64,000 nt of DNA, taken from a virus (Duplodnaviria; Caudoviricetes). Each line of letters begins with the position of its first letter. The stretch's first letter is position 1. Where the stretch lies: the IMG/VR virus record IMGVR_UViG_3300032319_000936, positions 116,759-180,758 of that record. One strand, given 5' to 3'. The notes beneath the pieces were generated by a model. That model ran no database searches and had not been told where the DNA came from. It worked only from the letters and a program-made list of their open reading frames with translations. Both the position numbers and the translations under genes were made by a program. This document shows positions 2,615-3,027 of the stretch, piece by piece.

Positions 2615-3027
2615 CATTTGTTATCGCTAGGCTCTTTATCCTAGCATCTACATATTTCTATGTAGGTCAGACTATATCTTAAAAGAGGTTTAAGAATTCA
2701 TTCAAATACTGGGAAAAAATATTTTTCACAATATTCAAAGAACTCTAAATTTTTCACACATCCGATTTTATAATTATATATTTATCGAATGTACCTCCTT
2801 TCCCACCTTTCTTGGATATTTCTCCTTATTAATTTAACTTAGGATACTTTATCTAGTCGTTGAACTTTCAACCTCTTTCGAGGAAGCTTAGCTGCTGATT
2901 ATCCAAATCTCTATAATTTTTTAACATTCACACTTAGAATTGCTTCTTATGTTGTAGTTTATAAAGCTCTAAGGAACTCCCAGCAATTAAATGGATTTTT
3001 TTTACTTGGAGGCAGTACTAATTATTT
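2615..3027 (-). mobile_element. Group I self-splicing intron (IA-like, 413 nt) in dnaK
   Basis: The 5' exon ends in U and the intron ends in G. IGS GUACUGCCUCCAAG pairs with both exons. P (AAUUGCUGGGA), Q (AAUCAGCAGC), R (GUUCAACGACUAGA) and S (AAGAUAUAGUCU) are present, as are P8 and P9 stems. Removal restores DLGGGTFD. Confidence 0.95.

Follow-up and report, generated by a model that had tools for sequence, protein, structure and literature searches.

A probable IA-type group I intron interrupting dnaK in a large tailed phage, and the traces of its mobility

We report that a phage dnaK gene is interrupted, at the codon boundary Gly197|Gly198 (E. coli numbering), by 413 bases (3027-2615, minus strand) that are, with high confidence, a genuine group I intron, probably of the IA type, with P7.1/P7.2-like insertions. 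The DNA analyzed here, called the window, covers the final 64 kb of an IMG/VR virus record of 180.8 kb, estimated by CheckV to be 66% complete. Genes of the record include those for a baseplate wedge protein, collagen-like tail fibres, a helicase and a primase, and the record is therefore that of a large tailed phage. A first-pass annotation of the window had placed a group I intron at DLGG|GTFD of a dnaK encoded by the phage, and the covariance model, the covariation within the intron family and the intronless alleles agree on this. The structure of the window intron, its covariation, its exact insertion and the footprints of its mobility are described below. The features were as follows:

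3028-3609, minus strand: dnaK exon 1, 194 codons, ending in ...VAVYDLGG (phmmer and ORF list)
1313-2614, minus strand: dnaK exon 2, 433 codons plus stop, starting with GTFDVSILE... (phmmer)
2615-3027, minus strand: group I intron, 413 nt, 30% G+C, with no intact ORF (RF00028 and intronless alleles)
3014-3018, minus strand: P10 guide GUACU, complementary to exon-2 GGUAC at 2614-2610 (sequence)
3005-3013, minus strand: internal guide sequence GCCUCCAAG, forming P1 with exon-1 CUUGGUGGU at 3036-3028
2978-2995, minus strand: P element, with the P3 5' strand UCCAUU (2995-2990), J3/4 and the P4 5' strand UGCUGG (2985-2980) (cmscan, and covariation of P3 and P4)
2891-2900, minus strand: Q element, with the P4 3' strand UCAGCA and the start of P6 (cmscan alignment and covariation)
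2852-2865, minus strand: R element GUUCAACGACUAGA, with the P7 5' strand GACUA at 2858-2854 (invariant in all members)
2802-2853, minus strand: P7.1/P7.2-type insertion, then the P3 3' strand GGUGGG at 2807-2802 (covariation)
2681-2801, minus strand: P8, stem AAAGGAGG (2801-2794) paired with CCUCUUUU (2688-2681), with a long loop (covariation)
2679-2757, minus strand: remnant of a homing endonuclease gene in the P8 loop (translations compared with the loci L083, L088 and L085 and with the protein P0121)
2669-2680, minus strand: S element AAGAUAUAGUCU, with the P7 3' strand UAGUC at 2674-2670 (cmscan and alignment)
2626-2665, minus strand: P9 hairpin (2665-2648, GAAA loop) and P9.1 hairpin (2645-2626, loop AUAAAGAG) (covariation)
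2615, minus strand: 3'-terminal G (omega G); a G stands directly before the GGN/CAA exon-2 codon in every same-site intron examined

The two exons together make up a complete DnaK. In phmmer searches exon 1 matched residues 1-197 of E. coli DnaK (E 1e-70) and exon 2 matched DnaK/mtHsp70 from residue 198 on (E about 1e-136), with no residue of E. coli DnaK missing or duplicated. Read without splicing, the upstream ORF (3609-3025, minus strand) consists of the 194 DnaK codons and an extra Lys codon (AAA) before the stop TAA at 3024-3022, and its product ends in ...VAVYDLGG-K-stop. The downstream ORF (2617-1313, minus strand) has 434 codons. Exon 1 ends with GAT CTT GGT GGT at 3039-3028, the intron starts with AAA TAA at 3027 and ends with ...AAATG at 2615, and exon 2 starts with GGT ACA TTT GAC at 2614. 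Excision of 3027-2615 restores the phosphate-2 motif DLGGGTFD (DnaK residues 194-201) and keeps the frame. The junction GAT CTT GGT GGT|GGT ACA TTT GAC, as first proposed, is thus exact; it is in register with E. coli DnaK 197|198 and with the two closest intronless relatives, L002 and L003.

Neither exon contains a stop or a frameshift. Compared with L002 and L003, the window gene showed 114-118 nucleotide differences and just 19-20 amino-acid differences, corresponding to a dN/dS of 0.05-0.06 over both exons; these values are pairwise, so part of the constraint may predate the arrival of the intron. The interrupted dnaK therefore appears to be still under selection. Since an intact and constrained gene is split in the active-site loop of the ATPase, we infer that splicing takes the intron out of the RNA. 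Among named bacteria, the best relatives of the window DnaK were all Bacteroidota, which would fit a Bacteroidota host.

Several observations concern the surroundings of the gene. In the window (850-1272, minus strand) and in several related phages (L083:7929-8330, L087:7625-8011, L090:6256-6633), a small gene for an HhH-GPD glycosylase is located downstream of dnaK; it follows dnaK directly in L090 and is separated from it by a few genes in L083 and L087. In L083 and L084 an HSP20 gene is found directly upstream of dnaK. Next to a collagen-like tail fibre of the window, a 453-aa ORF (5562-6923, minus strand) has a repeat of roughly 23 aa (SLQSVPLFNTSAVTNMSQMF...) in about eight tandem copies; its PHROG matches are all of unknown function.

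The covariance-model search, a check proposed with the first-pass annotation, was carried out with cmscan. Rfam model RF00028 matched 3037-2648 (minus strand) over its full length (positions 1-253) with 50.6 bits (E 6.5e-10), just above the gathering score of 50. This was the only RF00028 match in the whole 180-kb record. Long insertions, located in P5, in P8 and between P7 and P3', keep the score modest; shorter relatives at the same site reached 56.6-76.9 bits. Folding of the window intron as a single sequence gave P1, P4, P5, P5a, P8, P9 and P9.1, with an MFE z-score of -4.8 relative to shuffles. The P, Q, R and S elements, the two P9 hairpins and the terminal G were all located on the minus strand where the first reading had placed them, with the P element proper at 2988-2978. 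All invariant core positions of the intron family are retained in the window copy, which has two U-U mismatches in P6a. The insertion between P7 and P3' comprises 45 nt, and its closing helix GAUA/UAUC shows compensatory changes in 4/4 pairs. Across the family, compensatory changes were also found at all eight pairs of P8, at 5/7 pairs of P9 and at 4/6 pairs of P9.1.

P1 forms with 8/9 pairs, including the U3028-G3013 wobble at the 5' splice site and one internal U-U mismatch that is conserved. The cmscan alignment placed P1 in another register, with the splice-site U opposite an A, and this register was rejected; the U-G register co-varies across the family. Because the guide sequence follows the exon codons, the P1 register originally proposed was preferred over that of cmscan. 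The P10 pairing of GUACU (3018-3014) with exon-2 GGUAC, also part of the early proposal, is possible, and its guide is only partly conserved in the alignment of relatives. Two further segments are invariant in all members, namely the P9.1 loop AUAAAGAG (within 2626-2645, minus strand; columns 485-492 of alignment A2) and the tail GAUAACA (2618-2624; columns 499-505). RNAalifold pairs an invariant AUC before P3 with the GAU of this tail, which may represent a tertiary contact or an alternative pairing.

From the general mechanism of group I introns, a splicing pathway can be proposed in which catalysis and splicing in vivo are presumed. The primary transcript would fold and the guide GCCUCCAAG would pair with the last nine bases of exon 1, presenting the U-G wobble. 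Guanosine would then attack after U3028. Subsequently, the terminal G2615 would dock, aided by the 5-bp P10, and ligation of the exons at GATCTTGGTGGT|GGTACATTTGAC would yield GAT CTT GGT GGT|GGT ACA TTT GAC and the full 627-aa DnaK. Unspliced RNA would give only a 195-aa fragment because of the stop at 3024-3022.

We searched for further introns at this site in two ways. In the first search, exon 1 was used as query, limited to proteins of similar length, and the contigs were then fetched. This recovered many N-terminal DnaK fragments of 195-206 aa, ending in DLGGK*, DCGGKVCASAY*, DCGGKQVSASAFYLN* and similar sequences (asterisk, stop), and on these contigs the second half of dnaK was found 308-1450 nt downstream. 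The second search used a pattern for the 3' end of the intron (S element, P9, P9.1 loop GATAAAGA and GATAACA) and matched 50 IMG/VR contigs, with about 32 matches in dnaK/Hsp70. For 19 matches both boundaries could be placed at the codon junction of the window; all of these introns start after GGNGGT and end in G. Introns homologous to that of the window sit at this codon boundary in at least 30 further contigs. The first-pass annotation had suggested a survey of dnaK genes for the same insertion site, and dozens of metagenomic viral dnaK/Hsp70 genes turned out to be occupied. Exact-pattern scans for the intron subtype of the window returned nothing in metagenome_contigs or viral_contigs; a looser subtype pattern found three further dnaK introns (L150-L152).

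Viral dnaK also has a second site for group I introns, HLGG|EDFD, which lies 28 codons further downstream and is similar in sequence to the first. It is occupied in L096, L099, L100, L113, L120, L121, L140 and L144 (for example L120:6734-6795). Locus L144 apparently has introns at both dnaK sites, flanking a mini-exon of about 90 nt.

Covariation was analyzed with twelve short introns from the window's site, using MAFFT, RNAalifold and pair counts. Unconstrained RNAalifold recovered P1, P4, P5, P5a, P6, P6a, P7, P7.1, P8, P9 and P9.1. Its call for P3 was rejected, in which the invariant AUC (A2 columns 88-90) was mispaired with GAU (columns 499-501); this helix was dropped from the tested structure and P3 was examined separately. 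Standard pairs filled 97.5% of the cells, compared with 76.5% after shuffling (none of 500 shuffles was as high) and 35-45% when the partners were slid by 1-3 columns. Likewise, 41 of 63 pairs had changed on both sides, compared with 25.8 in shuffled and 11-17 in slid alignments. P3 covaries as UCCAUU/GGUGGG, UCGGGU/GCCCGA, AUCGGU/ACCGAU and CCUGGU/GCCAGG. The U-G at the splice site, which had been predicted for the window, was present in 12/12 aligned members, and compensatory changes occurred at the outer pairs of P1. Guide and exon vary together, CUU (Leu) with AAG, UGU (Cys) with GCG and UGC with GC.

We next turn to the alleles without intron. With exon 2 as query, 80 related viral dnaK loci were fetched, and 0/80 were interrupted at the site of the window. 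The intron was absent from all 23 loci with at least 62% identical DnaK, including the closest relatives L002 and L003, whose DnaK proteins are about 97% identical and whose syntenic DNA is 89-93% identical over window 874-5111. In both, the alignment breaks exactly at 3028|2614 and precisely the 413 bases 3027-2615 are missing. The intron is a clean 413-bp presence/absence polymorphism relative to L002 and L003.

The closest copies of the intron were found in other phages. It is 97-98% identical to the introns of L083 and L088, which contain 90 and 151 extra bases in their P8 loops, whereas the DnaK exons of these loci, intact in both, are just 70-79% identical in protein to those of the window. 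The similarity to L088 extends into the exons, with 1 mismatch at positions -1 to -69 and 8 mismatches at +1 to +210; beyond this tract a mismatch occurs at roughly every third base. Conversely, mismatches between the window and its own intronless relatives are densest in the 64 bases just upstream of the intron. The shared flanks (-69 to about +210) are co-conversion tracts of the kind that homing by double-strand-break repair would leave, as would recombination between co-infecting phages. The intron was probably acquired fairly recently by homing or recombination with co-conversion of the exons. As in mobile introns, the site is polymorphic for the presence of the intron, and the intron is more conserved between these phages than the gene around it. 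A further mosaic segment, apart from the intron with its flanks, is a 791-bp stretch (window 51-841, L088:6781-7569) that is 96% identical between the two phages, in neighbouring DNA of about 70-80% identity.

The P8 loop of the window intron contains no intact endonuclease gene, only remnants of its terminal codons. The N-terminal remnant reads VKNLEFFEY, with the start codon changed from ATG to GTG at 2757-2755. The C-terminal remnant, in another frame, reads IFSQYLNEFLNLF followed by a stop (2720-2679) and overlaps the 3' strand of P8. Longer decayed pieces are present in L083, L088 and L085, and the P8 loop of L091 contains an intact 362-aa ORF (P0121). Since no more than a dozen codons from either end of the gene remain in its loop, the window intron is an endonuclease-less derivative, and it stands late in the usual cycle of invasion, decay and loss. 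In the proposed scheme, the P8-loop endonuclease of the relatives would be the agent of mobility and the window copy a passenger without one. No free-standing homologue of the endonuclease was found elsewhere in the 180-kb record, which is 66% complete. A free-standing 401-aa ORF among the structural genes (window 55957-57162, minus strand) matches the phage homing endonuclease family phrog_3339 (E 1.7e-20) and is unrelated to the dnaK intron.

Intact homologues of P0121, with ORFs of 360-370 aa, occur in at least 10 same-site introns, among them those of L094, L110, L115, L117/L123, L124, L128 and L141. Partial matches were obtained in L135, whose ORF is truncated at the end of the contig, and in the more divergent L143. 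P0121 had no match in Pfam and no sequence match in the PDB, and PHROGs gave one very weak match to phrog_503 (unknown function, E 0.0045). The family alignment revealed two CxxC...CxxC zinc-ribbon modules and an invariant D299...E310-x-K312. An AlphaFold model of P0121 (mean pLDDT 84.5) gave weak but coherent Foldseek matches to AbaSI, TnsA and the catalytic domain of I-Bth0305I, the best with E 0.04. The D..ExK motif and these weak fold matches hint that P0121 has a PD-(D/E)XK-like fold behind its zinc ribbons and, as a putative endonuclease, would cut DNA. A different ORF was found in the intron of L152 (about 637-1690, intron strand), which belongs to the window's subfamily and lies at the same site; it encodes a double-motif LAGLIDADG protein (LMGLILGDGKL ... 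LLLWFLDDGNL). As L152 carries a different endonuclease, at least two endonuclease families have colonised the same-site dnaK intron.

What does the intron do for its host gene? The first-pass annotation had raised the idea that splicing could gate Hsp70 output. The intron would then be a regulator, with temperature-, GTP- or Mg-dependent splicing setting the amount of phage DnaK, and a chaperone for protein folding would be governed by the folding of an RNA. The reading frame of unspliced RNA ends two codons past the exon border, which makes splicing a prerequisite for DnaK output, and a switch that responds to folding would be plausible in a chaperone gene. However, the intron is present only patchily, being absent from L002 and L003 and from every one of the 23 loci whose DnaK is at least 62% identical; a 97-98% identical copy sits in divergent dnaK genes together with co-conversion tracts; its endonuclease gene is decayed; and close relatives interrupt tape-measure, capsid and ribonucleotide reductase genes. 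We therefore regard a regulatory intron as unlikely, and it is just as improbable that conditional splicing serves to time or dose phage Hsp70 during infection. The patchiness, the near-identical copies in divergent hosts, the co-conversion and the decayed endonuclease rather point to a selfish element that would be phenotypically neutral to its host gene.

Another possibility is a catalytically dead intron, with dnaK a pseudogene split in two. The decay of the endonuclease gene, the two U-U mismatches in P6a and the marginal Rfam score would fit this, but the exons are full length and free of stops and frameshifts, with a dN/dS of about 0.05 against the intronless alleles, the invariant core positions of the family are all kept, and near-identical copies persist in two other phages with intact exons. 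A dead intron is thus very unlikely. Alternatively, the two halves of DnaK could be translated separately and reassemble without RNA splicing, with exon 2 starting at the in-frame ATG (2617-2615) formed by the last three intron bases directly before it. This ATG is not conserved, however, and relatives end in AAG, ACG, TTG or CCG instead; moreover, the break falls inside the phosphate-2 loop of the ATPase, and the intervening sequence is a covarying ribozyme. We give this possibility hardly any credence. The preferred reading remains that of a selfish intron removed from the RNA, with the window copy an ordinary endonuclease-less member of the dnaK intron family.

The subfamily is found in other genes as well, namely in tape-measure, major-head, ribonucleotide reductase and Sak4-like genes. 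These are usual targets of phage introns. To look at cellular genomes, one genome per species was scanned for 185,579 prokaryote species. Six matches were obtained. Five of them are in dnaK, and these lie on MAG contigs of 3-30 kb that belong to unrelated taxa; one is exactly as long as a viral contig of IMG/VR matched by the same pattern. There was no evidence for the intron in a bona fide cellular dnaK among these 185,579 species' genomes. With so few matches, on MAG contigs, the element looks virus-restricted. Several carriers, among them L135 and L143, are labelled as giant-virus MAGs. The Hsp70 of L141 is of the eukaryotic type (614 bits to Hsp70A, 343 bits to DnaK), and its intron is homologous to the phage introns in 3' end, insertion site and endonuclease.

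These findings have practical consequences. Gene callers split such genes into 'Hsp70' proteins of roughly 195 and roughly 430 aa, and public protein sets contain dozens of truncated DnaK fragments ending in DLGGK or DCGGKVCASAY. If the intron is overlooked, surveys of phage or giant-virus Hsp70 will list 'fragmented' chaperones. The phosphate-2 motif, which is universally conserved in Hsp70, is a homing site, and one family of intron and endonuclease is found both in phages with bacterial-type DnaK and in giant-virus-like contigs with eukaryotic-type Hsp70. The intron family is useful for tracing gene flow between large viruses, and it offers a homing endonuclease specificity that is probably new.

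Phage group I introns usually reside in DNA-metabolism genes (td, nrdB, nrdD, pol) or in terminase and structural genes, and a chaperone gene had accordingly been called an unusual host in the first-pass annotation. This holds in part. Our literature search turned up no paper that describes a group I intron in dnaK of a phage, but dozens of viral genes are occupied at the same site and a giant-virus HSP70 case has been published (PMC3542560). dnaK as an intron host is thus new for phages in the literature searched, already reported for giant viruses and widespread in metagenomes. A 2025 paper on large aquatic Bacteroidota phages reports that they encode DnaK, DnaJ and HSP20 and mentions no introns (PMC12619734). 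A 2026 survey describes intron-containing or fragmented HSP70 genes in some Imitervirales (PMC12978162).

The closest published parallel comes from megavirus and Acanthamoeba polyphaga moumouvirus, which have a group I intron within HSP70 (Yoosuf et al. 2012, PMC3542560); the megavirus intron carries an endonuclease ORF and the moumouvirus copy does not. As in the window, a group I intron interrupts a viral Hsp70 gene, and the presence and absence of the endonuclease mirrors, by the published description, the introns of the L091 type and that of the window. In the contigs L135, L143 and L141, the 3' end of the intron and the endonuclease are homologous to those of the phages, and the intron lies at the same codon boundary as in the window. 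Unlike megavirus and moumouvirus, the host in the window is a tailed bacteriophage with a bacterial-type DnaK.

The P0121 family can be compared with the I-Bth0305I/Vsr-like (EDxHD) and PD-(D/E)XK homing endonucleases (PDB 3r3p), which it resembles in D299...E310-x-K312 and in the weak fold matches, with E of 0.04 or above for all of AbaSI, TnsA and I-Bth0305I. In contrast to the I-Bth0305I type, two CxxC zinc-ribbon modules precede its nuclease domain. The best GenBank phage match to the intron, L082 (LR756504.1:436273-442552), comes from an uncultured phage of 636 kb. There it is found within a gene for ribonucleotide reductase, beside an intein-like end (…VHN) and a 307-aa zinc-ribbon endonuclease ORF, and this phage has its own dnaK elsewhere in the record.

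IA introns of phages are known from td, nrdB and nrdD of T4, from the Staphylococcus phages Twort and K and from SPO1-like phages of Bacillus. Over about 150 nt, the P3-P7 core of the window intron shares 72-82% identity with introns from phages of Staphylococcus, Bacillus, Enterococcus and Streptococcus. Like the phage IA introns, the window intron has extra sequence between P7 and P3', which would form an additional pair of helices, and is inserted in a highly conserved motif of a conserved gene, and its family carries an endonuclease ORF in a peripheral loop. It differs from them in its 3' domain, with P9 and P9.1, the invariant AUAAAGAG loop and the GAUAACA tail, and in its host gene, which encodes a chaperone and not a protein of nucleotide metabolism, replication or structure.
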